Below are positions 2,637 to 58,277 of a stretch of 64,000 bases of DNA, piece by piece. Every line of letters starts with the position of its first letter. The stretch's first letter is position 1. The stretch spans positions 4,092,001 to 4,156,000 of the forward strand of contig NC_081396.1 in NCBI RefSeq assembly GCF_030684315.1, read 5' to 3'. Under the pieces are notes generated by a model. The model made no database searches, was not told the origin of the DNA, and saw only the letters and a list, made by a program, of their open reading frames with translations. The stretch is from Stegostoma tigrinum. Lineage: Eukaryota. Both the position numbers and the translations under genes were made by a program.

Positions 2637-3027
2637 TCATGGCGTGAATTTATGGTGTCCATCAGTGCATGTGAAATATTCACAAAACTCGGTTTGCCGC
2701 TGGATTTATCAACCGTTCTGTTGATGATCTTCAATGGAATCGCTTCATGTCCCACCACACAGGAGTAAGAAGCACCGCTGGTCCACTCCTCCGCAGCAAT
2801 GGATAATAGGCTGTACAAGAAGAAGGAGGTGTTATTGCTCGCTGCCATCACCTCAGTGTTCTTATAGTTTGTGGGATTAACCGGCTTGTCATTGGTTGTC
2901 CACTTGACAAAGATCTCACGGGGTCTGAAACCCCTCACGAAACAGGTGAGCAAAACAAACTTCTGTGCGGAAACTTCTTCTGTTGTTGGCAGGAGAACGG
3001 ACACCATTGGCTCCAGTGGATTTACCG
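2637..3027 (-). pseudogene. IGHM: IgM CH4 exon plus secretory tailpiece (decayed)
   Basis: ttctgcag|CG GTA AAT CCA; [28 protein letters not shown]...[57 protein letters not shown]. The end reads TCA CGC CA TGA where S-C-Q-stop is expected. Confidence 0.96.
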
Positions 3028-3489: not shown

Positions 3490-3795
3490 ATTTCTCCTAG
3501 TGGATAGAATGTCGCAGTAGAGTCCGTAGATACTGATTGCTCACCACGCATACAAATTTATCCCCACTCAGCCAGGCTTCAGTAGAAATATCTAACTCGC
3601 TGATCACACCTTCGGAATGCTCTCCAGAATGGTCAACAATCTCTGATTTCAGAGTCTTCTTATCGTGCATCCAGGTGAAGTTGGCATCAAAATGAAGTTT
3701 GTACACAACGCAGGTTAATTTCACCGCCGGCTCCAGTAAGACCTGTTCAACTGGTGGCGGTAATATTTTAGCGGTGTAATCATGGAACTCTGAAA
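3490..3795 (-). pseudogene. IGHM: IgM CH3 exon with premature TAG near its 3' end
   Basis: ccattgtag|TT TCA GAG ... ATC CAC TAG GAG AAA T|gtgagt; KILPPPVEQVLLEPAVKLTCVV..FTWMH..LDISTEAWLSGDKFVCVVS; stop at 3499-3497. Confidence 0.95.
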
Positions 3796-5721
3796 CTACA
3801 ATGGAGCAGAAACCAGAATCAATGACAAACTGCCTCTGGAGAAACAAAATAACAGTGTTTACTCACAATGTAAAGAACCTACCTTAACGCACGAAACTTT
3901 CAGCTATTCCGGCAACGATACTTACTTTTGTTCGTATATATAAATTTGTGAAATCATTGTTGATTACCTATAAATTGCCCTGGGTAATCTTTGCCAAAGT
4001 AAACTAGCTTTGCACAAAGTGAATTCTGTGAAAAAAAAATCAATGTCACCATGATTTAAACCATGGAGTAATTTTCTTGTTTCACTTAAGGCCAACTACT
4101 GATATTTTTGGCAAAACTAATCTCAAATCAATGTAATGAATTCATTTTTACTTTCATGAGGCATGTGTGCAATTTTTGCTGAACATGGTGAGTGTCAAAT
4201 CACATAACAATTTCAGTAAACCTGTAATCAAACGTAGTCATTCTCTTATTCCTTTTGTAACTATGGTTATTTTCCTATGTTAATGTAGTGGTGAAATTTC
4301 AGGTAAATTCTTTTCAATGTAACTTAACATGATGGAAAATAAGTTGCATTATTGGTGTGAGATCATTCTCTAAATTAGATCATGAAATACTATTCCTCAT
4401 TGTCCATATTTGGAATAGACCTGAAAACGAGACACAGAATACGGCATCGGAAACAGAGTAGGGCACTCGTCCTCTCAAACCTTCACTACACCATGCAATA
4501 TTCACTGAGATAATGAATAGGCTCAACTCTCATTTTGTTCAGTTAGCTGCAACTTTAAATTCCTTCCCAGAAAAAAAAATAATCCAGCAGTGAGAGTTTT
4601 ATATCGACTTGCAAACTCACCTGATATCTGCACTGGTAAATTTCATACTTCCACTACTCACTGCGTAAAATCATCCATCCTGAAACCAGGCTAAAGGATG
4701 TTAGTTATAATGCTGAGTTAATTCATTCCAATTGCTGCATTTCCACCAGAATTTATTGTCCTGCCACATCCACGAATTGCAGAAAACCTCTGAACCAGGC
4801 TCGTTGAGATCAAGTTTATCTCTTTTAATCCAATTTTATTCTCACCCTGGTCTCAGTTTTGGTGTCATGATTGACGTTAAAAGTCCCATAACTTGCAAAA
4901 ATTTTGTCATCCAATGCTCAAGGTCAACAGGTACTTCCTGGTCTTGGAACAAAGTATTGAGTAGATTTTGTTTTATTTTCAAGTCTGAGTCTCTTCATAT
5001 CTTCCTATGTCATCTTCTGACCACAAAACAGAAAGATATACCAGAAGAATCAGAAGATTCCGGAAATCAATGCTTTTCTGCAATGCAAACATTGAATGAT
5101 TTGTTTCTCAATCCCATTGTCCCGCGTTCTCCATGTACTAAGCATCAACCAATCTATCTCTATCTTAATTGATTTCGATGTGTGACCTCCACAACACTCT
5201 GGGGCAGTGAAATCCACAGATTCATCACTCCCTGGTTAAAGATATTCCTCATTGGTCCAGTTCTATATCGCCCTCCCTTTGATTCTGAGGCACTGTCTTC
5301 GGGTCCGAGTCAACGTATTAGTGAAAACATCTTCTCCGCATCTACCCTGTTTCGAATTCTCAGTATTTGCTAAGTTTCAACGAGATCACTTGTCGATGGC
5401 TCACCTCACCCCTGCCGCCAACAACCCCCTATTCTTGATGCCATAACGAGTATTATGCATTTCCACTCCGTCTCCAAGTATTGGCCAACAACAAATGAAT
5501 CCAGTCAACTGTCATATGTCATCAACATAGATGGAAACATGTTTGTCTGATTTGAATTAAGAGCACTGCTGACGTACAACTCACAATGAAATGAGATACA
5601 CATTTGCATGATCTCAAATTAAAACTTGATCAGTGCTGTTCACTCAGCTTGATAAATTACGTGTATTGGATTTGCATCAGCGGGCAGAATTCGTGTCCTT
5701 TCTGTAGAATGCATCTCTTAC

Positions 5722-6036
5722 CCTGAGGTCCTGTGATGTTCTGACTTTGAATGAACCCCTCATGACCGACTTGGCATGTATGAACTGCTCTGTCGAACCA
5801 TTTACAATAAGGGACTCTCATCTGACTGGTCGTTGAGAAGTTTCCATTCGCTTCACACACAGGGGCAGTGAAGATACCAGAATCCACGTGTCTTCCATTC
5901 TTCAACCAAATCACGGAGATTTTCTTTGGATCGAGATCAAAGATTGAACAGACAATGGTTGCAACTTTTCTGCTCTCGATTACTTCTCTGGAACGCACAG
6001 TTAAGAGAACAGTCGGAGGGACACCACCGTTTTGAA
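5722..6036 (-). pseudogene. IGHM: IgM CH2 exon
   Basis: ttttcttaag|TT CAA AAC ... CCT CAG G|gtaaga; PPTVLLTV...ATIVCSIFDLDPKKISVIWLKNG...NGNFSTTSQMRVP..WF..VHTCQVGH; 315 bp, open. Confidence 0.95.
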
Positions 6037-6149: not shown

Positions 6150-9120
6150 TAATTATGCAAAATACAGCAAAAGCTGGCGTTCAGGCAAAAAGATCAGCTG
6201 GTTGAAATTCAGTGCTAAAATTCGAAGAAACAACAAGTACTAAATATGGTAATGAAATTATACATCAGTCAAATCAATGAAAAGATTCCGACGAAGTGAA
6301 GAGAAAAATGAGGAAATTAAGTAGTTGATATTATGCCAATATGTTGACAGAGGGGAAGGACACATTATTCCAGGAGATTCAGCCTTCAAGAGAGTCGGGA
6401 GAACTAATAAAATGGAGGCTGGGGTGGGTGGCTGTAGTGTGTGTCGCAGTATTGAGCAGGGTGGATTCAATAGTAAAGAGAAAAGAAATCGTAGATAACT
6501 CCTCAAATGAAAGCAATGAAAAAGACTTAAAAACCAACATAAAGCTAAAAAGTCTGCTCGGAGAGCAAAAAAGGTTCCTTGACAGGTTCAAGAGATATGA
6601 GTGTGGGTACGTCAGCAAATTTTCATAAATAGGGTAATGATTGTAAGGATTTCAACTTCCTCAATGTAGGTTCGGCATTCAACGTTTCAAATGTTCAGCA
6701 GGTGTAGAAGTGTGAAATTGAGGTTTTTAATGCAGTACGTCGGCGACCTGACAAGAGAGGCTGAACCTGTACCTTTCTTTAGGTAATGTGGCCAACAAAG
6801 CACTCCACGTATCAAAGGAGAAGCATTTTGCAGAGATTGATCACAAACTCATTAGATTCAATATTGTTCTGGAAAGTGATAGTAATACACCCAAACTGAA
6901 ATTTTGAATCATGTGAAGGCAAAATGTAATATGATAGGGTACAATTTGACCAGACTGAAATGAGAGCAGGCATTTCATGGTAAATGTGAGTCGGATCAGG
7001 AGGATGCACTCAAGCAGGAAATGTAAAGACGAAAAGGCCGTCAAAACAATGGAAGCTCTCAAGAGGTCTAAAACATGCAAGGGCAGGTTGAAAATGAAAA
7101 ATTAAGAGAAAAACGAAGCATAAAATTATATTTGCACAATATTGGAAAATAACCCCTTTAAAAAAAACAACGAAGAGTTGTTTTACAAGTTGACAAATGG
7201 CAGAACGACAAGTGCAGAAACAACAGGGCCCATTAAGTGCAACAGCAGTATTATTTACTTATTAGCTGTAATTGTAGGGTAATGGTCGTGCTGAGTTCAT
7301 GTGAATGGAAGTCAGTGCCTAGTGGTGGTCTGTGGGGATCAGCATAAATATCCTTGTGTGATGTCTACAAACAATTTACATTTGAAGCTGGAATGTTTGG
7401 TCAGAAATGTCGCAGTTCGAATGAAAAGTGTCAAGCTGTACGTATTGAGGTCAAAAATTGTACAACATAGTTTTTTTTAGAAAAGAAGGAGTGGCTTGAT
7501 GGGCTGATCATGACAAATGGGAATCATTCTGGGTAAGGGTGAGGTGATGCATGTATGCTGAAAAAATGCAATGTTTTGCGTTATAAATTGTGGAATCCTG
7601 AGATGCACGAGATTTTTTAGTGTGCATGCTCAGCTGTCGCTTATGGCTCAAGGGCTCGGCAAAAACAAACAAACACTGAGTCATAGACATGCATAGTTTG
7701 GGAACAAACCTTTCGGTTTAACACGTCCATTTGACCAGATATCCAAAATTATTAACTTAAGGAGTAACAGCAAGTAAGTTATGTTAAAAATTAAAACATT
7801 GTGTTGGAGATCACGATTAAAGTGAAGATGCAGGTATAGAATCAGGGAGAAGAGTTGTGATGTGCTTTAAGAAATCTGCATCAGATGAGTGGATTCTCTG
7901 TCTTGTACTACAGGGCGGATGAAATGTATCCAGCGCTGTTGAGAGAGGAACGGAAGGAAATGGTTGAGGTGATGGCAATGATTTTGAATTCTTCTTTGGC
8001 CTCAGGCAATACCCTGAATGGCTGTAGGCCACACAAAGTGGTACCATAGCGTAAAAGGGAGCAAAGTGTTATCCATGGAATCAGGGGTTAGTCAAACTAG
8101 GCTGAGTCGTCGACAAAATATTGCAATCAATTCCAAGGAACACTATTAATCTTCATTCGGAGGAGTTTATTCAAAAAATCTTGGCAAGTTTTATTGAGGG
8201 GAATTCATGCCGAACGAACATGAAGGGATTTTGTCAAAGACTAACGAGGTGGGTAGATGATAGCAAAGCTAAGAGGCAATGGGATTCGAGGAAATTTGAT
8301 TGGATCAAAAACTGTTTGCGTGGCTGCAATTGGAAGGTGATGGTCGTGGTGTTTTCATGTGAATAGAGGCCTGCACTTCGTGGTGCTGGGAGGGGATCAG
8401 CATAAATATCCTTGTTGTTTGTGATGTCGACAAACAATTTAGACTTGAAGCTGGAATGTTTGGCCAGAAGTGTCGCAGACCAAATGAAAATTGTCGAGCT
8501 GTACATATTGAGGTCAAAAAATTGTACAGCATAGAAGAATAAATAATTAGATGTGGCTCGATGGGCCGATCATGGCAAATAGGATTCATTCTGGTTAAGT
8601 GTGACGTGATGTATGTCTGCTGAAAAAAATGCAAAGTTTAATATGATAAATTGTGGAATTCTGAGATGCGCGAAATTTTTTCATGTGTATGCTCACCTAG
8701 TGCTTATGGCTCAAGGACTGGCCAAAAAAAATCACGGAGTTGTAGATGTGTATAGTATGGGAGCAGACCTTCCAGTTTAACACGCTCACTTGACCACATA
8801 TTCCAAATTAATCTGGTAATATTTGCCACATACACCTCTAAACTGTTCATTTTTATGTACCTGTCCAGATAACTTTTAAATATTTTAATTATCCTCCACA
8901 AGTTCCTCTGGCATCTCAATCCATTCACATGTCACCCTTTGCATGGTCCCTGTGAAATCTTTGGTTTCTCAATTTAAATCTATGCTCTTGAAGTTTTAGA
9001 CTCCCTTCTACCAATGATACGATGTTAGCTGTTCTCCCCGCCCAAATTCCTCATAATTTGATAAGCTTTCATCAGGTCTCCAGTCTTCGACTCTCGAAGG
9101 AAATTAATCCCTCTTATAGA
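6150..9120. mobile_element. Decayed CR1/L2 fragments filling the CH1-CH2 intron
   Basis: Degenerate endonuclease/RT-like sequence on + (6150-8620) and a LINE 3' end on - (8730-9120). Confidence 0.6.
7300..8815. repeat. ~450-bp direct duplication (7300-7750 vs 8360-8815)
   Basis: Shared ggggatcagcataaatatccttg...gaagctggaatgtttgg...attgaggtcaaaaa...ataaattgtggaat...cttatggctcaaggg; offset ~1060 bp. Confidence 0.9.
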
Positions 9121-9446
9121 GCCTTTCTCTGTAATTTATATCATCCGCTCATTTCGAGGGGAATTAATCATTTAGACAATGGAGGAATAGTCATGTTAAA
9201 GCTGAAACTTTCATAGCACGTCAGAAGCTTTGAGGCAAATACTTGCATTGCCAAATCAACAAGACAATCGATCCTCTGTTAGTAAATTGTATGAGACTGG
9301 TTGGGTTTTTTTGAATGGTATGTAATTGATGGGCCAAAGGGTCATTCACCTGCTTAAACGTTTATGATTCTGGTGAACATGTTAACAATCAAGCCCAATT
9401 CAAATAAAGCACACACATCTGTTTACCCCGTTCCCACAACACTTAC

Positions 9447-9743
9447 ATAACATTTCAGTGCTTGTGTCAAACCCGCTGTGTCGAACCTCACAGATAACTT
9501 TTCCATATTTTGCCTCTGATTCGGGGACCACTAACTGACTGCTCAGGGTGTAAGTTCCCTTCTGGTTTCTCATCGATGGGTATGTCATAAATCCAGTCGA
9601 GATTGGCTTCCCACCTTTCTTCCAGGTCACAGGGGTAGCGTCAGGGGAATAGTCCATCGCCAAACAACCAAAAGTCACAGAACCGTTAGAGTTGTGCTGG
9701 TCACTGGAGGCGAGACGATAAATCATCAGGGAAGACGGCTTTA
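9447..9743 (-). pseudogene. IGHM: IgM CH1 exon
   Basis: ttcccag|TA AAG CCG ... ATG TTA T|gtaagt; KPSSLMIYRLASSDQHNSNGSVTFGCLAMDYSPDATPVTWKKGG...TYTLSSQL...ICEVRHSG; 297 bp, open. Confidence 0.95.
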
Positions 9744-9785
9744 CTGGGAAAGAATGCCGGATTAAGCAAGTTAGACTCTGTTAAT

Positions 9786-13800: not shown

Positions 13801-15319
13801 CAACAGTAAACAACTGAGTAAAATTTTATGGAGAGCTGCGAAGCCTGTTGCGCTCAAGATGTAAAATGATCTAATGAATGGTCTAACATTCTTAACAGCT
13901 CAAGAGGCCTTTGTCGGCTTCAAATTAGTATCCTCACATCACCTTTGACAGCACGTCCCAAAACTATCGACGTTAAGGACAAGAGCGCACAAGCAAGTAA
14001 GTGCTTCACTTGAAAGTTTACCTCCAAATCACACTTGATTTCACTTACAACAATTTCTCTGTCCCTTTCTTATTTCAGGGTGCAGCGTTATTGAACTCAC
14101 TTTCTTACAGCGCTGTGGGCGTACTAATGCTACATGAAGTCTCGCAATTCAAGTAGGCTGGTGACTATGAACTTCTCAAGGAGATATAAGCGTTCTGAAG
14201 CTTCCATGTCATTCCAGAGGAACAAATACCCACTGGAAGCATTGAACGATATTTGAGGAACTTGTTGAGTGTCCATTCAGGGACCACGTGCTGAGGAGTT
14301 TCCTTATGTATGGTTTGACGATGTTTTCAATTAATTAACAAAACTGTATCTTCATAATTTAATGGGAATTAAGGTTTCCTCATTTTTAGAATTGTAACCA
14401 TGTCTTACTCTTGACTGGGGGAAGGAAATATAATGTTTAATTAAAACGGTCTGACGAACTTGATTGGGATGTTTGAACTGGAAATTTTCAGAGATTTAAA
14501 GTTGATACTCATGATACTATTTCTTCTGAAACCACGGCTTCAGATTGGGTTACTCACTTTCAATGATTATCTGATTTAAAAATCACTAAACATTCTTAAT
14601 TTATTATAGCACATTTTGTCCATGAACAACTTAAGTTGTTTCACTGACAATTGAGCATGCTTTTCATGAAAGAAAACAAAAACTGAATGCTTTAAGCCTG
14701 GAATAAAACCACAAATTACTGAAGAATCTCAGCAGGTCTGGCAGCTCCTGAGGAGTGAATGCAAAGATAATTTTCCGATCTCAGTCCACCTTGCTTCAGC
14801 AAATTGTTTTCATGTTTCTGGCGTGGGAATTGACATCTATTCAGTCCAGCTTTGATTAAGTTTGCTTGGCTTCTGCTGAAAAGGGATTCTTAGGAGAGAT
14901 AATGGACGAACTGAGGTATAACTAAAGATTAACTGAAAATGTGCCACGATTTGCTGCAAGTGTGAGATTCAGCAGAACCCTCATCCTCCTGAACAGGCAA
15001 ATGCACCTGATCGAGTGTATCATTAATGTGATATAAAATAAAACAAGCTCAACATTGTCAACTCAAATATTCTTTGGGGATGATTCGTAATAGGACTTTT
15101 TTTCATGTTATTGATAGAAGAACAAGACGAAAGCTGCAATTTCTGTGGGGCATCACTGAATTAACCCAACTAGCGTCGCCCACATCCCATGAGCAAATAT
15201 TGTTTTTATTTACAATAAATAGAACCCCCTCAACCCCCACCAAATTCTGTCTGCTATGGAAGAAAGCGATTGATTCAGAACTCTATTTTTGGAATTCCGA
15301 CAACATGCACAGACATTGA

Positions 15320-15323
<4 letters not shown>

Positions 15324-15356
<33 letters not shown>
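15324..15356. repeat. (TC)16 microsatellite
   Basis: Read directly from the sequence. Confidence 0.98.
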
Positions 15357-15360
<4 letters not shown>

Positions 15361-15916
15361 TTTAACCTGTTGAGATATGGTATTATGTACCACTGTAACA
15401 GGTTTGAATTGAACACGGGCCACATACCTCAATGTCAGGGACACGACTGCTGTCGCAAAAGAGGCAGAATTCAATTATCTCGACACTGCACAACACAACG
15501 CAACCCACCTGTTTGACAGTCCATAAACCATGTTAACTAATACCTTCTTTCAGCAACCAGGCATAGTTACAGAGTCTTTTCAAGAATTATTCAAACGCAC
15601 TTTGATAGTCCTCCTGAATTATACAATCATTACAGGAACTACTGTGGAATACAACTAGGAATTCCATGGTGATACATTCAGTGTCATTAGATTTCAATCC
15701 CGGGGACGTCCCATTCCAATACAATCATGGTAGTTGCTGCACCAGATCTGCTATAATCCAAATAAAGTAAAATATTTTGAAGTAAAGTTTGATCTTTACC
15801 ATTCACATGAACAGCCCACGGTAGCCCCTTCAAGAAGAGGAGGCAAATAAACTCTGATTCTACATTTTGCCACGAAACATGTGTCGGAAAGCTGAAGGGG
15901 GAATACAATATACAGC

Positions 15917-17095
15917 ATAATAAAATGTGAGGCTGGATGAACACAGCAGGCCGAGCAGCATCTCAGGAGCACAAAAGCTGACGTTTCGGGCCTAGACCCT
16001 TCATCAGAGAGGGGGATGGGGTGAGGGTTCTGGAATAAATAGGGAGGGGGGGAATCAGACTGAAGATGGAGAGAAAAGAAGATAGGTGGAGAGAGTTTAG
16101 GTGGGGAGGTAGGGAGGGGATAGGTCAGTCCAGGGAAGACGGGCAGGTCAAGGAGGTGGGATGAGGTTAGTAGGTAGATGGGGGTGCGGCTTGGGTTGGG
16201 AGGAAGGGATGGGTGAGAGGACGAACAGGTTAGGGAGGCTGAGACAGTTTGGACTGGTTTTGGGATGCAGTGGGTGGAGGGGAAGAGCTGGACTGGTTGT
16301 GTGGTGCAGTGGGGTAGGGGATGAACTGGGCTGGTTTAGGGATGCGGTGGGGGAAGGGGAGATTTTGAAGCTGGTGAAGTCCACATTGATACCATTAGGC
16401 TGCAGGGTTCCCAAGCAGAATGTGAGTTGCTGTTCCTGCAACCTTCGGGTGGCATCATTGTGGCACGGCAGGAGGCCCATGGTGGAAATGTCATCCAAAG
16501 AATGGGAGGGGGAGTGGAAATGGTTAGCGACTGGGAGGTGCAGTTGTTTGTTGTGAACCGAGCGGAGGTGTTCTGCAAAGCAGTCCCCAAGCCTCCGCTT
16601 GGTTTCCCCAATGTCGAGGGAGCCACACTGGGTACAGTGGATACAGTATACCACATTGGCAGATGTGCAGGTGAACCTCTACTTAATGTGGAATGTCATC
16701 TTGGGACCTGGGATAGGGGTCAGGGAGGAGGTGCTGGGCAAGTGTAGCATTTCCTGTGGTTGCAGGGGAAGGTGTCGGGTGTGGTGGGGTTGGAGGGCAG
16801 TGTGGAGCGAACAAGGGAGTCATGGAGAGAGTGGTCTCTCCGGGAAGCAGACAGGGGTGGGGATGGAAAAATGTCTTGGGTGGTGGGGTCGGTTTGTAGA
16901 TGGCGGAAGTGTCTGAGGATGATGCGTTGTATCTGGAGGTTGTGGGGTGGTGTGTGAGAACGAGGGGGATCCTCTTTGGGCGATTGTGGCAGGGGCGGGG
17001 TGTGAGGGATGTGTTGCGGGAAATACGGGAGACGCGGTCAAGGGCGTTCTCGATCACGGTGGGGGTAAAGCTGCGGTCCTTGAAGAACTTGGACA
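15917..17095 (-). mobile_element. Penelope-like element, 5'-truncated left arm (GIY-YIG endonuclease + 3' pLTR)
   Basis: VYCIHCTQCGSLDIGETKRRLGDCFAEH...LPVANHF...EQQL...LGTLQPNGIN motifs; reverse complement of ~17460-18602. Confidence 0.92.
15978..16009 (-). ncRNA. Minimal hammerhead-ribozyme motif in Penelope pLTR
   Basis: CT-CTGATGA-A-GGGT-CTAG-GCCC-GAAA-CGTC-AG: CUGAUGA and GAAA cores, stem II, palindromic ACGT stem III, GUC cleavage triplet. Stem I is only ~2 bp. Confidence 0.75.
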
Positions 17096-18612
17096 GGCCC
17101 CAACACAGGCCCCAAACCCCACCTCTTCCTCCGGTACATTGATGACTGTATCGGCGCCGCCTCTTGCTCCCTAGAGGAGCTCAAACAGTTCATCCACTTC
17201 ACCAACACCTTCCACCCAAACCTTCAGTTCACCTGGGCCATCTCCAGCACATCTCTCACCTTCCTGGACCTCTCAGTCTCCATCCCAGGCAACCAGCTTG
17301 TATTTGATGTCCATTGCAAGCCCACCGACTCCCACAGCTCCATAGAATACACCTCCTCCCACCCACCCTCCTGCAAAAATTCCATCCCCTATTCCCAATT
17401 CCTCCGCCTCCGCCGCATCTGCTCCCATGATAAGACATTCCATTCCCGCACATCCCAGATGTCCAAGTACTTCAAGGACCGCAACTTGACCGTGTCTCCC
17501 GTATTTCCCGCAACACATCCCTCACACCCCGCCCCCGCCACAACCGCCCAAAGAGGATTCCCCTCGTTCTCACACACCACCCCACCAACCTCCGGATACA
17601 ACGCATCATCCTCCGACACTTCCGCCATCTACAATTCGACCCCACCACCCAAGACATTTTCCATTCCCACCCCTGTCAGCTTTCCGGAGAGACCACTCTC
17701 TTGTTCGCTCCACAATGCCCTCCAACACCACCACACCCGGCAGCTTCCCCTGCAACCGCAGGAAATGCTACACTTGCCCCCACACCTCCTCTCTCACCCC
17801 TATCCCAGGTCCCAAGATGACATTCCACATTAAGCAGAGGTTCACCTGCACATCTGCCAATGTGGTATACTACATCCACTGTACCCGGTGTGGCTCCCTC
17901 TACATTGGGGAAACCAAGCGGAGGCTTGGGGACTGCTTTGCAGAACACCTCTGCTCAGTTCGCAACAAACAACTGCACCTCCCAGTCGCCAACCATTTCC
18001 ACTCCCCCTCCCATTCTTTAGATGACATGTCCATCATGGGCCTCCTGCAGTGCCATAATGATGCCACCCGAAGGTTGCAGGAACAGCAACTCATATTCCG
18101 CTTGGGAACCCTGCAGCCTAATGGTATCAATGTGGTCTGCACCAGCTTCAAAATCTCCACTTCCCCCACCGCATCCCTAAACCAGACCAGTTCGTCCCCT
18201 CACCCCACTGCACCACACAACCAGCCCAGCTCCCAACCTCCACCCACTGCATCCCAAAATCAGTCCAACCTATCTCAGCCTCCCTAACCTGTTCTTCCTC
18301 TCACCCATCCCTTCCTCCCAACCCAAGCCGCACCCCCATCTACCTACTAACCTCATCCCACCTCCTTGACCTGTCCATCTTCCCTGGACTGACCTATCCC
18401 CTCCCTACCTCCCCACCTAAACTCTCTTCACGTATCTTCTTTTCTCTCCATCTTCGGTCCGACTTCCCCTCTCTCCCTATTTATTTCAGAACCCTCACCC
18501 CATCCCCCTCTCTGATGAAGGGTCTAGGCCCGAAACGTCAGCTTTTGTGCTCCTGAGATGCTGCTCGGCCTGCTGTGCTCATCCAGCCTCACATTTTATT
18601 ATCTTGGATTCT
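17096..18612 (+). mobile_element. Penelope-like element, 5'-truncated right arm (RT C-terminus + GIY-YIG + 3' pLTR)
   Basis: From 17105: TGPKPHLFLRYIDDCIG...FHPNLQFTW...LTFLDL...YTSSHP..CKNSIPYSQFLRLRRICS. ORF 17715-18287 has VVYYIHCTRCGSLYIGET. Confidence 0.93.
18510..18541 (+). ncRNA. Minimal hammerhead-ribozyme motif in Penelope pLTR
   Basis: ctCTGATGAagggtctaggcccGAAAcGTCag, identical over 32 nt to the minus-strand copy at 15978-16009. Confidence 0.75.
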
Positions 18613-18731
18613 ACTGCCTCACTCAATCAAAAATCCCCCCAAGGCGGGCACATTATTGCTGGCAATCGATTTCAAACCTCCTGCAGGCTGTCTTTCATTG
18701 CTAAACTGTTCGATCTGATTTTACTGATTTG

Positions 18732-18913
18732 TTCAGGGGTTTCATCTCTGAGACTTCAATGAAATATTATTTTACTGGCAGATAAAAACATCTTTGAAGC
18801 TACAGAAGGAACTTAGCTGTTTCAGGGTATTCATCTCTGAGACTTCAATGAAATATTATTTTACTGGCAGATAAAAACATCTTTGAAGCTACAGAAGGAG
18901 CTTAGCTGTTTCG
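18732..18913. repeat. 89-bp tandem duplication, two near-identical copies
   Basis: ttcatctctgagacttcaatgaaatattattttactggcagataaaaacatctttgaagctacagaagga.cttagctgtttc at 18741 and 18830. Confidence 0.95.
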
Positions 18914-21139
18914 GATGCAGGACATGAACCAGACGAGTTACAACGGTTACGACCACTTGACAAAACAATCAGAAATAACATAGACACAAACTGTACAACG
19001 GTCTTTAACCTCACAGCTAAAGTTTTTCAATCTGTCATGTCAAAAGTTGCAGATTAACTGTTATTTAATTTTCATAAAAGAAACAAGTCAGAGGTTAGCA
19101 TTAATAGAATGGGATCGCTTTCACATTGAACAGAGATTATGTACTACTTCAAAAAAAAACTTTTCAAGTCGTCATGATAAACCAAATTATTGAGGTGAGA
19201 CATTTCACCAATTTAAGCCAAGCTCAAGATAAAATGAATAATTTTCGAAATTAATTTTTCATATTCTTAAAAGAGTTCTTAAAATTTGGAGATTTTGCAC
19301 GCACTGTACAAAACCATTTTGCATGGCATTGCGAAAAACAATTTCTGTCGAATAACTTAATGTAAATATTTACTGTCAGAGTTGCTTTGCAATGGCTAGT
19401 TAGTTTTCTTATGACCTGCTTTGCAGTGAAAGATAAGTTTTAGAATGCATAAATTGAGAATGTGTTTCTCCCGAGAGTTGCCCACTTCACCTGATGTCTA
19501 CATAAATGATAATCACCCTTATCTAATGTGAACAATATCCTTCAAAAGGCTTAAGTTGAAGTATATTTATTAAAGTAAATATTACTCTATTTTATTGTTT
19601 GAAATAATCCATGTGTTCTGACACTTTGTACGTACTGCTTCTGCAAAATTATAAACTGTGCATATGTCTCAATGCATTGATATATAACACATTATCTTCA
19701 TTTGCAGAAAGCATTCACATGATGAGTTCATGCTTGGATAATTTTACTGAATACAAACTCTAACCTTGGTCACATAATACCCGACATCAGTTGTTTCCGA
19801 GAGAGTGATTCTTGAGTTAATGTGACGTTGTAAAATGAAACTCTATTTATTTAAACCACAAGCATTGGGGAAACATAGAACGCTGTGCAGATTAAATCAC
19901 TCAGTTAAAATTTTGTTTTTATTTCCACAAACATATTTAATCAGGGATATAACAATTAATTACTACAAGTTACTTGTGAGAATGATCAATACAGTAAATT
20001 TGATCTGTTCTTCATCGAAGTATTTTGGAAGATTGCTAATTAGCCTTTGTTAATTATCTTTCTCAGCCAGAAATCTTGTTTGTAATATATGACAGATTGA
20101 AAGGTGATTCCTGATCAAGGTTATGGCGTTTTTGCTCTATGTCAAGAACGATTAAAGCATTATATCATTGAAATCCTGTTCATATTTCTCTGTGACTTGT
20201 AATCTATACAAGGAAGAAAATTGCTGTCGAAATAGCTGATTGCATAGCATAAATAAATTAATTTGCAACTATGATGTATCGGTAAATATGCTCCATAGGT
20301 TGTCTGTTCTTCCTTAATTTCCAAAATTTGTCATCTGCCTTTCGACTCATATTTGGCTTTTGGAAATTTCAACACGACTGGTGTTTGCATTCAATGAGTA
20401 AACTGGAGCGTTTAATTTTAGCAACCAATTAAACAATGCTAAAACAACGTAGAAACCAGAAACCGCTTCAGAAATGTTATGACTTTGATACCTCCAAGCA
20501 TGTTTTCTTCTCAATAGATCAAAAATAACCAAATCAAAATCTTGAGGGAGAGTCATGTGTTTGCTGCAGAATTGTTCCACAGGAATTTTCAACAGAACTG
20601 TAACATCAGCAAAGAAATCTCAAATTGGAATCCATCAAAACTGCTCACCACCAAATAAACTAATGATTAAATTATATAGAAATTATAGCCAGAGCAGCAC
20701 CCTTGATTGCAAGGTGACTTATTCAACAACACATTAAGCTGAGCATTTTATTTAAAAGAATATATTTTTAGCAGCAATTCAGTTTATTTGTCACCAGTTT
20801 ACATTTACTGTTCATGTAAATTGTGAGCACTGCGCAGTAGAGAAGTTAGAGTCATATGTCGGTTCATGACTTTAATGTCAAAACAAGATTAGTTCAATGA
20901 ACACAATTACAACATCATAATTTTGCATTATGCTAAATTTATCCTCAGTTTTGAAAGTTGATGAATTGGGCATTTTGAAATGTTCAACGCAAATTGTATT
21001 TGTATGAGGGTAGGCATAACAGACTTTATTTAGTTTACAATTACAATGATTTTTTTCAATAAATCAATGCACTAAAATGTCGTCATTTTTTTTTATTCCA
21101 CGAACCTTCCGTGTGTCTATGGTAAGTCTGTGTTCACAG

Positions 21140-22132: not shown

Positions 22133-22185
22133 CTAAGGCCACAGTCACCCTGCTTCCTTGTCCCCAGTAATCGAATTCAGTATAT
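22133..22185 (-). other. IGHJ: Fused D2-JH segment
   Basis: ATATACTG AA TTC GAT TAC TGG GGA CAA GGA AGC AGG GTG ACT GTG GCC TTA G|gtaag = YTEFDYWGQGSRVTVAL, with the WGxG motif and an intact donor. Preceded by a 12-RSS rather than the 22/23-RSS of an unjoined shark JH. Confidence 0.9.
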
Positions 22186-22565: not shown

Positions 22566-22575
22566 ACTCACGTAT
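22566..22575 (-). other. D1 remnant joined directly to VH (ATACGTGAGT)
   Basis: 10 extra nt between the V end (TGT GCA AAA GAC) and the first heptamer. There is no RSS flush with the V end; the following RSS has the 22-bp spacer expected 3' of shark D1. Confidence 0.75.
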
Positions 22576-22880
22576 GTCTTTTGCACAGAAATAGATGGCG
22601 GTGTCTTCGATCTTCAAGTTTTCAATTTCCAATGCAAAGATATTGTTTGAAGTGTCTTTGGATGCAGTAAATCGATCTTTATTCGCTGGCACACAGTAAT
22701 TGCTCGAGGAATCATAATTGGTAACTCACCACTCCAGACCCTGTCCGGGAACTTGGCGGACCCAAGCCATCCATGTTTCGCCAAGATTTAACCCGCTGGT
22801 TTTACAGGTCAGTTTCAGGGAACCTCCAGGTTGGCTGTTTCCTGTCTCTGGTGGAATAAAAGTAACCTCTGACTGGACAC
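22576..22880 (-). pseudogene. IGHV: VH exon with in-frame stop in FR2
   Basis: Acceptor ctttttgaag|GT; [100 protein letters not shown]. Both canonical Cys, the WVRQ motif and DTAIYFC are present. Confidence 0.96.
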
Positions 22881-23007
22881 CTTCAAAAAGGAAATAAAAT
22901 ATCACTAGTTTTGCAAATGAAATGGTTCCTGAATCATTTACATCCCAGTGGGAGACGAACACTTAAATGATTACAAACAGAAACTTGGAGGAAAAAAGAA
23001 AACTCAT

Positions 23008-29057: not shown

Positions 29058-31267
29058 TTACAGACAGAACGTACGTATTTTGTAGTGAGTTCAGTACGAT
29101 CGTGCTATGACTGGGTAACAAAAAATCTGGAAAAAAAAGCAACAGTAAGGAAATTTTAGTTTGGCTGGATTTATTCATTGTGGAACACGCGAATTTGAGA
29201 ATTTTTTTTCCGGTGAAGTACACAATGTAATGCTGGATAAATTAGGTGAAAAAAAGCTTCTTTAACGTTGGGGGATGCTCTGTAAGTAAAGTATTCAGAT
29301 ATAAGTGATCGGCAGCAAAGTGACAGGGAAGATTCAGGTAGCACAGTTCATAAAAGGATAGTGAAGGCAGGAACAGCAAACACATTTAAAAAGTGTTTGG
29401 AGATGTACTCCAAGTGCTATAACCTTCACTGTTACAGTCAATATGCTCTACAGTAAGCCTAGGCTGGAAGGTTCTGTTTTCAGGTGGTACAGTCCCAATG
29501 GGGTATGTAATTGTTTCTGTGGTGAAAAATCTTCAATAACTCAAAATACATGCTTGTCAAATTCAGAGGCTTTAAATTGGAAATGTCCCAAACTTTTGTC
29601 TCAATCATGTCAAATTTCAATAATCTTACACTCTCTCTGTTCAGGTAAGTAATGATCTATTGTTCCTCAAATGACGTTTTGGGCAACGTCTCTTTATTTG
29701 GCCAAGGTCAGCAAAATGAATTAACAATTTTAAAGGCATTAAACTTATTTTGATACAAATAGGCTAGCTTCATCTGCAGTAGACTGAACTTTCCAAACAT
29801 TACAGAGAAGATAAATGAGTCCTCACGTCATTAGGAATGACTTTTTTTCGAAACATTGTAGATGGATTGCTCAAAGCAGTTCGTGTGAGCAAAATTGTTT
29901 GGTGCTCTTTGTGGATTACTGCACTAAATGTTGCTTCAACCTGATTAATATGGTCCAAATGCACTTCAAAATGCCTTTGATCACATCCTTCATAAGAGAT
30001 AGTACAGCAAATTTAAGAAGTCATGGACCAAAAATGGCAGTTGTTCTTTGAACTCAAGGAAGGTCCATAATGGTATTCTGCAGGTATCAATGCTTCGACC
30101 TCTGATAGATTTCATTTATGTTTTTGACAACGACATTGGCATACCTCACAATTTGTTGCAACGAGAAACTGGTAACTATTCTGAACCAAAGGAAGATGTT
30201 TCAGAATTTCTTTAGAATCCAGTGACATTTGTGGAATTGGCCTCGGAATGATACATGAAATTTAGCCCAGAGCATTTGAGATGATTAACTTATGGCGGAA
30301 AGTGTAGAGATATAATAGAAGATTGTGTAGAACATGTCATGTCTCGTAGAAGCAAGAAAGGTATTTGAAACCTATATAATACACAGATTAGGTGTCACTT
30401 GGAGTGTATCTTCAGCTTTGGGCATCAATTGAAGACCTGTTATAAAGCGTACCTTCAAGGATCAAGAATGTGCATTCAGCCAAAGGACTTTCATTGAATA
30501 CCACGTTGTAGAAGTTGTGCAGCTTTGTTTGTTGGAGAAATGCATGACAGGTGATTGCTATATGTGTCCAAAATAATAAGGGGCTTGCGTGGATAAATAA
30601 GAGGACCAATGGAGGCATGAAGAAGCCAAACTTCATAACACAGTACATAGTTATGTTCTGGAAAGCAATCATTGAGAATATAGCACTGGCAGCAAGCACT
30701 GCATATTTCGAGAAGGGATCCAATCCAACATCTAAAACAAAAACAATCAAAGAAATTGACTTTTCGGAGGAGTAAATTAGACAAGAAGGGCCGAATGGCT
30801 CATAATGTGTTGCAAACACTCTCTAATACTATTCATCATACGCAAATGCCACACGGCGTAACTGACGTGGATTTTTTTTTCACAACATTGACAGCAACTA
30901 TGCCTTCCACTAAATCCACTAAATCTTGTCAATGATCATCCTAAAGCGGGTCATTTCTTACTTGTTTCTGTTATATGCTCAATATCAGTGCATACAGCAT
31001 TGAATCAAAAACCTCTTCACATTTGATTTGGTATTCTTGTGTACGACTATGCTGAATTATGTCATGGATAATATGACACTATGACTTTACAATAAGTAAA
31101 TCTAAATCACCCTCTGTGTTTTCTATGCAACACCTATCACGTTCTGTTACAACAGGCTCTATTTCCATTATTGTTCTTAACGCCTGTTATCGGCAGTTTT
31201 TATATTAACTGTATGATCGATTTAGTTCTGATACAAGTAATCAAAATGTCAACTAAACGTATTCCAT

Positions 31268-33335
31268 GATAACAAGGTGTGGAGCTGGATGAAAACAGCA
31301 GGCCAAAAAGCACCTTAGGAGCACAAAAGCTGACGCTTCAGGCCCAGATCCTTCATCAGAAAAGGAGGAGGGGAAAGAAGGTTGAAATAAATAGGGGCAG
31401 AGGGGGAGTCGGATCGAAGATGGATAGAGCAGTGGATAAGTGGAGAAGAGACAGACAAGTTAAAGGGCGGGGCGTGGGGGGAATGGAGCCTGTAGAGGTG
31501 ATGGTAAGTGGAGAGGTCGGGAGGGGGTAGGTCAGTCCAGGGAGCACTGACTGGTCCAGTAGGCGGGATGAGATTAGTAGATAGGAAATTGAGTTGTGGC
31601 TTGAAGTGGGAGGAGGGATAGGTGAGTGGAAGAAATGGTTAGGGAGGCAGGGACGATCTCGGCTGGTTTGGGGATGACGCAGGGGCAGGGGAGATTTTGA
31701 AGCTTGCGAAATCCACATTGATGCCATTGGGGTGCAGGTTCCCAAGCGGAATATAGGTTGCTGTTCCTGCAAGCTTCCGGTGGCATCCTTGAGGCATTGC
31801 AGGAGGCCCAGGATGGGCAAGTCATCTGAGGAATGGAAGTGTCAGTTGAAATGGTTCTTGACAGGGACATGCAGTTATTTATTGCAAATCGAGAGTTGGT
31901 GTTCTGCAAAGTGGACCTCAAGCCTCTGTTTGGTTTCCTCGATGAAGAGAAGGCCACAACGGGTACAGTGGATGCAGCATACCACATTGGCAGTTGTGCA
32001 GGTGAACATCTGCTTGATGTGGAAAGTCTTCTTGGCTCTTGGGATGGGGGTGAGGGAGGAGGTGTGGGGCCAAATGTAGCAATTCCTGCAGTTGCAGGGG
32101 AACGTGCTGGGTGTGCTGGGGTTGGAGGGGAGGGTGGGACGGTCAAGGAACTCACGAAAAGAGTTGACCTTCCAGAAAACAGACAACGGTGAGGATGGAA
32201 AGATGTCTTTGGTGGTGGGATCTGATTGTCGATGGCAGAAGTGTGGGAGCATGATGCGTTAGATCCAGAGGTTGGTGGTGTGGTATGTGAGAACGACGGG
32301 AATATTCTTTTGGCGGTTTTTGTGGGCTGGGGTGAGAGGGATGATTTGCAGGAAATGCGTGAGACACGGTCAAAGGCATTCTCGACCACTGCAAGGAGAA
32401 GTTGCGGTCCTTGAAGAACGAGCACATCTGTGATGTACAGGAGTGGAATGCCTCATCCCGGAGGCAGATGCAGCGCAGGTTAAGAAATCGGGAATAGGTG
32501 ATGGAATTTTTGCAGGAACGTGGGACGAGCAGTATTCTATGTAGCTGTGGGAGTTGGTGTGCTTGAAATGGATATCGTTTTCTCAGTGGTTGTCTGAGAT
32601 GGAGACAGAGAGGTCTACGAATGTGAGTGATGTTTTGGACATGTTCCAGGTGAACTTGAAGTTGGGGTGGAAGCTGTTGGCGAAGTGGATGAACTCTTCG
32701 AGCTCCTCTGGTGAGCACGAGGCAGCGCTAATACAGTCATCAATGTAGCGGAGGAAGAAGTGGGGTTTGGGGCCAGTGTAGATACGGAAGAGGGACTGTT
32801 CGACGTAACCTACAAAGAGGCAGGCATAGCTTGGGCCCACGCGGGTACCGATGGCCACCCCTTTCATCTGTAGGAAGTGGAAGGAATCGAAAGAGATGTT
32901 GTTGAAGTTGAGGACGAGTTTGGCTAGGCAGATGATTGTGCCAGTGTTGGGGGACTGGTCGGGCCTGCAGGACAGGAGGAAATGGAGGGCTTTTAGGCCA
33001 TCTGCATGGGGACTGTAGGTTTATGGGGACTGGATGTCCATGTTGAAAATGAGGTGTGGGGACCGGGGAAATTGAAGTTCTGGAGGAAGTGAAAGACGTG
33101 GGTTGTGACACAGATGTAGATACGGAGTTCCGGTACCAAGGGGGACAAAATGGAGCCAGGGTAGATGGAGATGAGTTTGGTGGGGCAGGAACAGGCAGAG
33201 ACAATGGGTCCACCAGGGCAGGCGGGCTTGTGGATTTTGGGAAGGAGATAGAAGTAGGTGGCGTGGGTCTGGGGAACAATGACATTGGATGTTGTGTGTG
33301 GGTGGCCTCCTGAGGTACTGAGGTTGTGACTTAGA
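31268..33335 (-). mobile_element. Older Penelope-like element, ~2 kb (RT + GIY-YIG, frameshifted)
   Basis: FYLLPKIHK, KGVAIGTRVGPSYACLFVGYVEQ, FFLRYIDD, VVCCIHCTRCGLLFIEET; same 3' pLTR as the intronic copies. Confidence 0.92.
31330..31361 (-). ncRNA. Degenerate hammerhead motif (GAAA>GAAG)
   Basis: ttCTGATGAaggatctgggcctGAAGcgtcag; a core adenine is mutated, so it is probably inactive. Confidence 0.55.
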
Positions 33336-41240: not shown

Positions 41241-44200
41241 ACCTAAGAAATGAACTGTGAAACGAACTCGACAGTTTGATAACTTGGTTAAAGAGGCTTT
41301 GGGAGTATTTGCTTAGCATTGAAAAGCATGTAGTCACTTCACGGAGGCAGTATTTCAATTTCTGCCGTGGTAGCTTCCATTAATTAAAGGAATTCAAATG
41401 AAACGCCGAATCAGCGATAATCACACACTTCCCAAAGTTTTTGATAAGCTCACATGGCTCAGTATTGTCCTTCAGAGGAGGACTTCTGTCCTTTCTGCCT
41501 GTTCTGTCCAAATCGTTCCACAATAAGTGGCCTGTTTCTTGACAGGCCCGAATCTGAGTATGAAGCCTCTCACTTTTATTGAAACTTTTTTTCAGAAAAA
41601 AGAGACACAATTAGTCCAACAAGACAGTGGTATTACAAAACGGTCAGCAATTCTGCATTCTTGGGATACATAACTAACTTGTTTAACTTTCAATCAAGAG
41701 TTTTTTTTAAAGTGCAAAATGTGCTGGAGAATAGAAATCTTTAAAAAACTATATAAAATCAGAGTAAGAATGCTGGGAACAGGCTGTAAGTGGTTAAGGT
41801 TCTGCAGGGAGAGAATCTCAACCAGTTTTGAGATCGATTATTTGATGCAAAGTCTCCTCTGATCGCATTGTAAATGCGAAAGGATTTTCACCAGTATTTT
41901 GCAATAATGTTTATTGCTGACTTGAAATGTCAAATTCATTGCTCTTCTGTTTGTGAGAGCTTTCTGTGAATGCCTACTACATTTCCATAATCAGGATCTC
42001 TCTGGTAATATCACTGGACCAGTACTTGCAAAGTCCAGTTTGATGTTTAGTTGACAGGTAGTGAAATCCCACATTTTGCGGTTGGTAAAATTTCAAGTCA
42101 AAGAAAACCTGGAATGAAAAACCAAGTCTAATGGCAACAATGCAACCATAATCAATCGAAAATACAAAAGCAATTGTTTACTCACGTTTGTTCAGTAGGA
42201 AATCTCAGGTTCTACTTGGTCTGTGCTTTATCTGACTTCAGATGCGTGGTAATGTGGTTGAGTGCCTTCTGGAGTGGCTGCGGCAACCTACTGAATGGGT
42301 AACCTAGAATTATGATTCATTGCATGGCCGAGGCAGCAACATGATATTCCATGAATGATTAAAATGAAATATAAGCACACCTAAAACTCACAAACTGTAT
42401 CAATTCATTACAATTGCTGTGGCACTTCCTGACGTATTTTTTTTAATTCTAACACGCGACTTGAGGAAGATTGAGCTCTTCGATATATGCCATCAAAATA
42501 GATTAATGGATCAATCAATTGAGCGTTTAGACAAAATCTAGTCTGACAGAAATTTGTCATTTCCAGTGACTGTAGTACTTTTGTGACTTAATTCATCCCT
42601 GAAATTAAATATTAAATACGCGCTATCTTTTGGAAATAAATTACGTCTGCTCAAAACGATTTTGAGAAAATTTGTATTCATTTCTGCTGACTGTAAACAT
42701 GCTTAAAATAAACATGTTTTGATTGAAACTTATCAATAAGTATCTTCGATCAACTGGCTTTGTCTCCATCAATCTTTCTTTGAAATCGATGAAGCATGTA
42801 TGTAAGTTAGCACATAAACAGAACTCTCAGAATAGATCATAGGACAACAAAAACGCTATTTATCTTTCTCCATAAACACAGCACACAAGTGTTGGTAAAA
42901 ATGCAAATGACTCAACAGATTCCAATCACAGTTTATGTAAAGACTTTTTAAACTTAAGCTATAAGTTTTTAGAATCAGCATGATGTAAAATCTTATGTAT
43001 AGCCAGTAATTGCAACCAAAATTGTGAAATGCATTGACACAGCCAATGTTTCTGTCGTTGTCTGTCTGTTATTCTCTCCTGTACTCCCGGCATTTTTTTG
43101 AAATATGTGATGCCGTCTTTTCAATTACCACCATCAGAAAAGGCTTTCCTCGCCAGATCAGCATATACTTTTGTCCAACTAATGCATTTCTTTTCAGAGA
43201 AATTTGAGACTGTACAGCAAGGTTTTCTCCAAAAGGTATTTTTGAGTGATGAATAACTTAGAAGTGCTTGACGGGAACCGGCGGAGAAATCTTTCAACAG
43301 CACCAAAATTGTCTTGTATCATGGCTGTGAGGCTTTACTGTAGTTGTGTTGAAAGGGATTTTCATTGTATCTTACCAGTGTTGCTCATGTCTCAAGAATG
43401 CTGGACTGTGCAGTGTAATGCACTTTCTGTCTATAGTGCATCTTGAATGGACAGTTCATGGAATTTTGAATATTTAAGTGAAGAGGGCGGCTTGCTCGGC
43501 TAAGATGTTGTGTTGTGCTGTCCTGAGAGTGTGTTTATTTTTAGGGAATCTTCGATGCAGATCTATTCAGCATCCAAAACATATTGCATGTGGCACTACA
43601 GAGATTCTATGCTTCCATAATTATTTTGTTGTTTGGAACAATGTATTGGGAGATTAATTCTGAGCACAATGTGAGCTGCACAATCACTGAGAATATCTGA
43701 TGTAACGGTGTAAACGGGCCTTTAACTCCGACGATTGCCTTCCTGATTTCGGAATGTTTACTACCAAAATAAAATGGGAACAAACTCCGACATCGAACCA
43801 TTTCGACCCAAATTTCTGTTGTGTGTTTGTAGAGGTAGAAAATGTATTCTCTGAGCAATGTGCATAACTTCCATAATCAACATGCTAGCGGTGTTTTTGA
43901 TATTGTAGTTTAAATGTTGTTTTAGTCTGCCTTTACCTTTTCTGTAGCAGCCTTGGTTTTTTTTTGATAAATCTGCAACAAAATTGAAGGTGTATATGTT
44001 TTTTGTGCCACTATCTTAGACAAAGGATGTGGTCATATAAAAGAGAGTCAGAGGAGGTCTATGGATGATGGTATTAAGGCTTGCCTTTTTTAATGTGTAG
44101 AAGAAATTAAAGCACCTGTACTGTTCTCAAAAAAACACACAATTGAGGGGAAATATAGGTGAGGTCTATAATAATTCTAAAGTCAGTAATTTAAAGCAAA

Positions 44201-44779
44201 CATCAATTATCATGTCAAAACAATTTGAACCAGAATTTGGCATTCTTCCAATGGAATTTGTTCTTCCAGTCAATGACATTGTGGCCGAATAGATCTCATC
44301 CTCCTCCACTTTTTATTCTTGTTTTCATAAGCAGTGATTCCAACACTAATTCAAAATCTGTCCATTTCACATTCGAAAACATTTAAGAACGAATATCAAA
44401 AATCTTGCATGGTATAGAATTCCACAGATTCAAAACATTCTGCGAGAAGAAATTATCTTCTGACTTAAATTTGTGGTTTTAATTCAGAGATGATATCCTT
44501 TGGTCTTGAAATCTCTCCGATGTGGAAACTCTTGTGCATTAAAACTATCAAGTTTCCATAAAATAATACCTTCTTCAAAATGTCACTACTCAATCTTCGA
44601 TATTCCAACGATGACAGGCCAAAAACATACACTCTCCACTCCTAAAACGGATAATCCATACCCAGGATCAGTTAAGTGAACATCCTACCGATTTCTTTGC
44701 ATTACAGTGTATCTTCCCTTCGATACGAGGCCCAGAACAGTTCACAGAATTCCAGCTGTTGTGTGCCCAGTGCTTCCAC

Positions 44780-46045
44780 AGTTTTAACAAAACTTATGGA
44801 TTCACAGAATCATGCATAACTTAAACAAAGCCCTTCATTCCAACGTATCTGCGTCAAACAAGTATGCCAACCTGGCCTCGATCCATTTGGCAGTATTTGG
44901 CTCATTCCTCTGAAATGCTCCCTGTCATATCCGCATCCAGGTGTGTTTTATGTGTTCTAATTGTAAACACCTCTACTGCTTCCTCTGGCCGCGTGTTCTA
45001 CACATGCAGCACTACACCCCTACCCCCGCCACGGTGAAAGGTTTACCCGCTCCGTTCATTTTAAAAGTTTCCCTTGTCGCCTTAATTATACATCATTTAG
45101 TTCTGGGCTTGCCCACCCCAGGAAACCGCTCTTGGTTATTCAATCTTTCAATGTTCCTCATGATGTTATGAATCTCAATAAAATCACGCAAGCCTCTGAA
45201 GCTGCAGCAAAAAATTCTATTCAGTCCCTGCCTTTAGCTACCAAACTCCGATTCTATTATCACCTTTGTAAATCTTTGCTTCGCCCTCTCAATTAAAAAA
45301 AAAACCCTTCCATCAAAATCAAATGGGATTGCGAAAAATATTCCAAAAGATGACCTCAAAAATGTCCTATACAAAAGCAACATGAAAGTCAAATGTTCGA
45401 GATTATGACCAAAGAAGGCAAACGTGCCAAATACCTTCTTCACCACCCTGTCTACCTGCGAGTCCACTTTCAAGGAACTATGTATTTGCACCCCAGGATT
45501 CTTTGTTCAACAACACTCACCAGGACCCTTCCATGAACTGAATAAGTCGTGACGTGCTATACCTTACCAGAATGCATCACTTTACATTTTCTAACTTAAT
45601 CCTGAACTGATACTCACAGAATTGCATTGTCATGCAGCAAGAAAACAAACTCGACCGGACAACCTATCCATGAAGGTCATATTCCAAAACTAAATTAGCC
45701 ACATATACCTGCACGTGGACCTTGTCCCTCCAAAACTTTCTTACTCACGTTCTCGAAGAAATATTTCTAAATGCTGTAACTGTATCAGTATCAAACACCT
45801 GCCCGGAACATCATTCCATAAACGAACCAACCTCTATGCAAATTAAAAGCCATCCTGCCCCTCCTAACTCTTTCTTCTCTCACATTAAATGTCATGAAAC
45901 ATCTCAACGACGGGGAAAATATACCTCCTATTCATCTTATCTTTATCTCTCATGATTTTACAGTACTTTGATAAGGGAACCCCACAAATGTCTACATTCA
46001 ATGAATAATAGCTCCAGTCTATTCAACTAGTCCCATTAGCTCTCT
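44780..46045 (-). mobile_element. Stacked CR1 3'-end fragments
   Basis: QIHSSLKVDSQVDRVVKKVFGTFAF remnant and CR1 3'UTR-like sequence; paralogous set at 51750-52800. Confidence 0.7.
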
Positions 46046-53420: not shown

Positions 53421-53789
53421 CCGTAGTTTTATACAATCCCTCCCTCGAACTCAAATCTTCCATGAAATCATTTCTGCACTCTCTCCAGTTTGATAATATC
53501 CTTCCTATAGTCGGGCATCCAGAACTGGAGACAGTCCGGCAGAAGAACCCTCACCAACCTCCCACAGAAACTCAATATGAATTCGCAACTCCGACATTCA
53601 GCAGTCTGAGAATTATAGTCACACATGCTTAATGCCTTCTTACCCACTCCAACAACATGTGAAACAAACTTCAAAGAACTGGTCTCTCTGTACTAAAATA
53701 GAACATAGAACATAGAACAGTACAGCACAGAACAGGCCCTTCAGCCCACAATGTTGTGCCGACCATTGATCCACATGCATGCACCCTGA

Positions 53790-56560: not shown

Positions 56561-56689
56561 CTTGGTTCCTTCCCAGGAAAATCCTTCCCACTAGCTGGTC
56601 TACCTCTTGCTACTGCCTCACCTGCATCAACTCTCACCACCGGTATACAGCTCAGGTTCCCCCCTCCCTGCCACACTTGTTTAAACCCG

Positions 56690-57613: not shown

Positions 57614-57806
57614 CTTATCTGAACACCCACTCAGTAGTAAAGTAGAAAGCTTACTTCAAGTTGCTTTAAAATTAATAACAAACTTATATTCAATAGAGAA
57701 AGTTTAGAATGAACCTTGCCTTATTAACTAGGTTAGAGGACGAGGGCGGGTGGGAGACACTAAAGTTGTAGAGTCTCTGGTGTAGCCGCCTTGCTGATAT
57801 ATATGA

Positions 57807-58205: not shown

Positions 58206-58277
58206 ATACATAAATGCTACATAAAGCACCATTTTCACTGTAAAAAAAAGGACTAAGTGTTTTTTAGCAAAACACTG

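Follow-up and report, generated by a model that had tools for sequence, protein, structure and literature searches.

The locus studied here raises the question of how two inverted Penelope-like sequences came to lie together in the J-C intron of a shark IgM cluster, and whether their presence there has any bearing on antibody rearrangement. Within the window (the whole stretch of 64,000 nucleotides that was analysed), two 5'-truncated Penelope-like copies are arranged head-to-head in the J-Cmu1 intron (Table 1). We consider it very probable that they represent a decayed pair that most likely stems from one insertion event and is likely carried as a neutral passenger in the J-C intron of an IgM cluster with a stop in its V exon. 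Self-BLAST of the window recovered the inverted arms described in the original prediction (15917-17042 against 18602-17485, 93.2% over 1131 columns), and global alignment of 15917-17095 with 17460-18602 gave 1081 matches, 54 mismatches and 52 gap columns, for an ungapped identity of 95.2% that falls to 91% once gaps are counted. Between the arms there are 54 substitutions and 12 indels, with the mismatches spread over the whole alignment. The 3' ends of both arms face outward, as had been proposed, and the longest perfect run between the arms (91 nt) spans the hammerhead-like motif. The start of the right copy was set at 17103, 5' of which 32 family copies differ in sequence. The spacer between the arms had been described as a unique RT segment of about 365 bp; it is indeed RT with the expected YIDD codons, but it is unique only inside the insertion and is otherwise ordinary family sequence, with 3273 first-look candidates. 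Pfam gave no match on the RT-bearing spacer frames, whilst two family copies (L110 and L114) possess ORFs of 837 and 827 aa with matches to RVT_1 followed by GIY-YIG, both under the curated cut-offs. Thus, the assignment to Penelope and the inverted partial repeat are both supported: the hallmark of EN+ Penelope-like elements, an RT with a C-terminal GIY-YIG in one ORF, is found in the family together with the YIDD and YIGET motifs, and 5' truncation with an adjoining inverted copy is found as well. Neither a full-length unit nor a tandem pLTR is present in the insertion itself, whose arms measure 1.15 kb and whose partial tail sits on the longer arm; a search of the flanks for a TSD returned none, the best flank match being 6 nt and imperfect.

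Table 1. Positions of the features in the window.
Feature	Position	Strand	Remark
Cmu2-4	about 5708-6028, 3500-3830, 2645-3025	-	
Cmu1 exon	9430-9750 (approximate bounds)	-	
Left arm, 5'-truncated Penelope-like copy	15917-17095	-	RT end, GIY-YIG remnant, 3' region, pLTR end; no tail
Minimal hammerhead-like motif, left arm	15980-16007	-	sense in IgM transcript direction
Filler at head-to-head junction (7 nt)	17096-17102	+	copies bases just inside the right-copy start, templated-insertion-like
Right copy, longer 5'-truncated Penelope-like copy	17103-18612	+	loop is its first 357 nt
RT catalytic YIDD codons in spacer	17135-17146	+	
GIY-YIG endonuclease remnant	17862-17984	+	Pfam PF01541, E 0.037, under curated cut-off
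Minimal hammerhead-like motif, right arm	18512-18539	+	
Partial tail, initial 10 nt of the optional family tail (~39 nt)	18603-18612	+	remaining tail and usual TSD missing
IgM J segment, germline-joined to D2	22133-22175	-	
IgM V exon, germline-joined to D1	22575-22881	-	in-frame TGA at 22726-22728

The predicted location in a J-C intron was confirmed, with the insertion lying between the J segment and Cmu1 of a minus-strand cluster. This cluster shows the V-D1-D2-J-Cmu1-4 layout with mu secretory tail that is typical of shark IgM clusters, including four C1-set exons in which all four C-domain frames are open, and the identity of its last exon to nurse shark mu chains (90–91%) establishes the isotype as IgM and rules out IgW. 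Alignment with three sisters showed that V-D1 and D2-J are germline joins with trimmed ends. The V stop is located in framework 2 and is absent from all 15 sister V exons; furthermore, the secretory tail ends in NSRHE in place of the NSCQ-stop seen in both sisters examined, the terminal Cys and the stop being gone. Given the V stop, the germline joins and the damaged secretory tail, the sequence indicates that this cluster is likely a pseudogene. The 15 sister clusters were retrieved from the same contig through flank searches, and the Penelope site is empty in every one of them with left and right flanks collinear: the check across sister clusters that had been suggested thus finds the insertion in only one of 16 clusters. 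When compared to the empty sites, the focal site is missing ~11 nt of target and exhibits no TSD. Seven of the 15 sisters harbour their own head-to-head Penelope pairs elsewhere in the J-C intron, mostly short stubs from about four separate events, and the other eight show no Penelope match in this intron. Among the short stubs in the sister J-C introns (L129-L144), one is common to four clusters and an older one to six, and they are usable as markers of the order of cluster duplication. The 16 IgM clusters lie at 3.27–4.86 Mb of the contig, at intervals of ~70–140 kb, and form two blocks of nine and seven with divergent transcription, the broken focal cluster being the innermost of the left block; the sister at ~3.272 Mb appears to be D1-D2 joined and that at ~4.854 Mb is without the usual V RSS.

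The empty sister sites with their collinear flanks also bear on the reality of the structure. Complex structures of Penelope-like elements (PLEs) are described as troublesome for assemblies (in the available part of PMC8557442), and, among the contigs listed, read support was seen for the left junction but not for the central or right one, the lack of a contig bridging the central junction being evidence in neither direction. However, an assembly misjoin or artefactual inversion is scarcely conceivable given the sister sites; the 54 substitutions and 12 indels between the arms and the templated filler at the junction also speak against it, as do left-flank contigs from three runs that continue for 22–24 nt into the arm and match it throughout (two samples from one study that is possibly the source of the assembly, and an overlap under the 31-nt bridging rule of the tool).

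In order to decide whether the arms share an origin, raw identity is a poor guide. The original prediction held that arms no more similar to each other than to other family members would betray independent insertions, and on raw identity this is what is seen: the arms diverge by 62/1137 (5.5%), with a median divergence to other copies of 5.8% and 5.4% and the nearest copies at 4.4% and 3.8%. Of the 29 pairs scored, the focal arms are moreover the most divergent, the other pairs being best hits and hence biased young. As a refutation, however, this result is misleading given the rare variants that the arms have in common: five non-CpG variants, each present in at most two other copies, are shared between the arms, whilst, in 166 cases where a focal arm was compared to some other copy, the number of shared rare variants was none in 132, one in 33 and three in a single case (Poisson mean 0.21; P about 3e-6 for five). 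These comparisons, like the raw divergences, were made on copies of at least 150 nt and at least 88% identity to the reference. L179 and L182 were removed from the analysis as duplicates. The arms are furthermore concordant at 29/32 subfamily-diagnostic sites. On the strength of the shared rare variants, their sequences point to one source for both arms and not to independent insertions. The same pattern extends to the family, where concordance at subfamily sites is 400/465 in 28 other pairs against 51% between loci, and where young pairs are near-identical (2/1317, 2/1198 and 7/1477 differences; the youngest differ by 0–0.8%). From this concordance and the near-identity of young pairs, it appears likely that both members of a pair start out near-identical, from one source, and grow apart as they age, and the divergence of the focal arms likely reflects ageing after insertion. 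Two copies that inserted independently at one site, or unrelated copies that were later partly homogenised by gene conversion, would explain both the raw identity and the missing TSD, and the five shared variants do all lie in the 3' third, a distribution that gene conversion could also yield. We nevertheless regard this as very unlikely, since alongside the shared variants and the subfamily sites the arms are not separated by host DNA, their junction is GC-rich in contrast to the AT-rich sites preferred by a related enzyme (according to the available part of PMC11167929), and mismatches run along the whole arm alignment. Amongst family pairs with both ends in view, a full tail was found on exactly one side in 19/19 and a TSD of 10–20 nt in 16/19 scorable pairs. 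The focal copy exhibits neither of these marks of a single event, which counts against a single event here; with both missing, the single-event reading must assume a secondary deletion.

Head-to-head pairs of this kind are anything but rare, in spite of the insertion having been presented as unusual. The exact hammerhead 31-mer occurs in 89,060 copies genome-wide (reversed-pattern control: 0), and the first 100 motif matches on one contig include 22 in 11 minus-then-plus pairs within 3.5 kb, as opposed to two plus-then-minus pairs. The first 30 motif matches on one contig fall in 28 distinct loci, a sample in which paired copies are over-represented and a few loci are old or cut by the locus edge; head-to-head was the commonest form amongst them (19/28), and it was found in 31/73 best-hit loci after removal of 14 duplicates. 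Scaled up roughly from 3 Mb of a single contig, the genome would contain about ten thousand head-to-head pairs that have the exact motif at each end. In L161-L188, many short stubs have their 5' ends at reference position ~1457–1462, just before the hammerhead core. An adjoining inverted 5'-truncated copy is reported as frequent in PLEs in the available parts of PMC8557442 and PMC3846280: the architecture is routine for this Penelope-like family and has already been published. Other repeats in the window include an older Penelope-like copy at 31263-32779 (-), 78% identical to the right copy, a further Penelope-like terminal fragment at 60484-60556, and decayed direct repeats (66–79%) at 42197-45015 versus 49220-51966, 53643-59801 and 7265-8810; the RT frames of the 53.6–59.8 kb pair are presumably LINE-like. 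An 89-nt tandem duplication (96.7%) lies at 18732-18912, 120 nt from the right end of the insertion, and overlapping sister matches suggest a single copy there in the sisters.

As to how the pair was formed, we infer the enzymatic steps from the product. The GIY-YIG/RT protein of the element would nick both strands at an AT-rich site, and each 3'-OH would prime its own cDNA on RNA of one source element, with two nearby start sites being used, one with and one without the tail. Extension would stop at about 1.5 and 1.2 kb, and the cDNAs would be joined 5'-to-5' by microhomology-type end joining that leaves the 7-nt templated filler; the arms, near-identical at birth, would later drift by about 2.4–2.7% each. 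The loss of most of the tail, of the TSD and of ~11 nt of target at the right end likely goes back to a later deletion or to microhomology priming during integration, and comparison of the site with the tail suggests a short microhomology between the two at this end. Such both-strand activity has been described for PAc, which in vitro cleaves and extends both strands, uses two RT start sites that bound the tail and is a predicted dimer (available part of PMC11167929). Amongst 25 closely abutting family pairs with both ends in view, eight have the tail on the shorter arm and six on the longer, nine have arms of equal length, one has a tail on both arms and one on neither; the junction gaps of such pairs range from -5 to +8 nt, which together with the focal filler suggests microhomology-type joining. 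The alternative is that one cDNA folded back near 17460 and used its own 3' part as template, leaving the arms and a 364-nt loop. This would give the same gross anatomy from one source, agrees with the focal tail remnant being on the longer arm and has been proposed, as self-priming, for inverted PLE junctions (available part of PMC3846280). A copy, however, cannot hold a tail that its template lacks, and in 8/14 informative pairs it is the shorter arm that bears the tail; together with the TSDs in 16/19 family pairs and the both-strand extension by PAc in vitro (PMC11167929), this leads us to favour two separately primed cDNAs as the better fit to the family. With its partial tail on the longer arm, the focal copy itself is not covered by this exclusion, which holds for the family only, although for this copy too we judge fold-back copying to be improbable.

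The identical motifs at both ends (18512+ and 16007-) bear out the prediction of a shared hammerhead-like sequence, which falls within the 91-nt exact stretch common to the arms. We rejected this stretch as a sign of selection, as ~60 breaks in 1140 columns would by our estimate produce such a run about three times in ten. By inspection, the motif has the conserved core, an unpaired base before helix II, a palindromic loopless helix III and a very short helix I, whilst an Rfam scan of 14000-21000 with E values up to 5 returned no hammerhead and one chance match to SAM-II. The description as twin hammerheads did not hold, since the two are never both sense in one transcript: each strand carries one sense motif across the insertion, and the second sense copy for a dimeric fold is absent. 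In the MFE structure of RNA through the locus, the sense motif is fully paired to its antisense twin. Minimal PLE hammerheads are reported to be inactive as monomers and weak as dimers, with two sense copies needed (available part of PMC4209133), and hence cis cleavage by the focal motifs would be unlikely. The long dsRNA stem expected upon transcription is supported as a prediction, with 1110 arm-arm pairs in the MFE structure. As to the proposed fold-back of the DNA, extrusion from the duplex is unlikely given the 364-nt loop and the 5% arm mismatch, but these limits relax in long single-stranded DNA, where widely spaced and diverged inverted repeats can fold back in yeast (available part of PMC10164571).

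Does the insertion then influence rearrangement? Studies of inter-cluster switching in sharks by Zhu (2012) and Zhang (2013) reportedly place the junctions in the J-C intron, and the insertion had been tied to such AID-linked rearrangement of clusters. This tie is not supported: the insertion is present in one of 16 clusters only, and in one with a V stop. AID-linked switching from a V to another C has been described in nurse shark, and the available part of the same source portrays shark Ig loci as without S regions (PMC4279169). It is highly improbable that the insertion gave this V-dead IgM cluster a 1.5-kb G-rich, fold-back-prone tract behind its J and thereby made it a preferred acceptor of AID breaks. 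That the tract is a functional switch-like region, drawing AID breaks such that the V-dead cluster serves as C-region acceptor in inter-cluster switching, is extremely unlikely, even though 17096-18612 is G-rich on the IgM sense strand (41–43% G, 13–14% C), the four C-domain frames are open and inverted repeats of this type fold back in yeast (PMC10164571). Arm-specific C/G changes fall at WRC/GYW in 9/29 cases against 31/192 in other pairs (Fisher P 0.07; binomial against the site background P 0.04; both uncorrected); this excess is weak, uncorrected and not significant by Fisher, and an AID footprint is hence not claimed. WGCW density in the insertion (18.7–22.0 per kb) is like that of the intron flanks (18.7–21.2), WRC/GYW density is likewise similar, and neither the AGCT/WGCW-rich repetitive tract of Ig switch regions nor conservation across clusters was found: the site is empty in 15/15 sisters, eight of them without any Penelope match in the intron. 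There are furthermore only two tandem mismatches between the arms, and the secretory tail is damaged. Motif density, arm mutations and sister clusters thus revealed no link of the insertion to AID rearrangement, and it likely has no role in antibody rearrangement. Were the switch-like reading true, the locus would be a natural one-in-sixteen test of switch-like regions arising from mobile DNA, and a concentration of breakpoints here would have a bearing on switch-region origin.

With about ten thousand such pairs in the genome and a stop in the host V, the locus itself matters little. As a fossil it contributes modestly to the problem of how inverted Penelope insertions arise: one source element, a tail frequently borne by the shorter arm in the family and a templated filler all fit two-strand priming. 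A literature search, largely confined to freely accessible papers and to main texts, turned up none on this locus. The 5' inversions of L1 generated by twin-priming likewise involve priming from both target strands, with microhomology or filler at the internal junction, and their inverted parts are non-overlapping. In contrast, both focal arms start at the 3' end of the element and duplicate 1.15 kb. The two 3' end points separated by the tail and the AT-rich target of PAc, the Anolis Poseidon, are seen in the shark family too, and both-strand cleavage and extension as shown for PAc would give a product of the focal type; inverted double insertions were, however, not reconstituted according to the available part of that source (PMC11167929), and the shark element is known here from sequence. 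The focal motifs share the core, helix II base, helix III and short helix I of metazoan minimal PLE hammerheads as described in the available part of PMC4209133, but lie on opposite strands, with mutual pairing predicted. In comparison with tetrapod Ig switch regions and shark inter-cluster switching (available part of PMC4279169), the insertion similarly lies between J and Cmu1 and is G-rich on the sense strand over 1.5 kb, yet differs from the switch regions in the absence of AGCT/WGCW enrichment, tandem repeats and cluster conservation, and in its broken host V. There is also a close likeness to EN+ PLEs of the Penelope/Poseidon type, as portrayed in the available parts of PMC8557442 and PMC3846280: the shark family has RT followed by a C-terminal GIY-YIG and the focal insertion a 5'-truncated inverted copy directly adjoining head-to-head, and the optional 30–40 bp tail of these elements (PMC8557442) is matched in the family by a one-sided tail of ~39 nt, alongside TSDs and a hammerhead motif in the terminal repeat. 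From these elements the focal insertion differs in being without a full-length unit, tandem pLTR, most of the tail and a TSD, and in its long arms of 1.15 kb.
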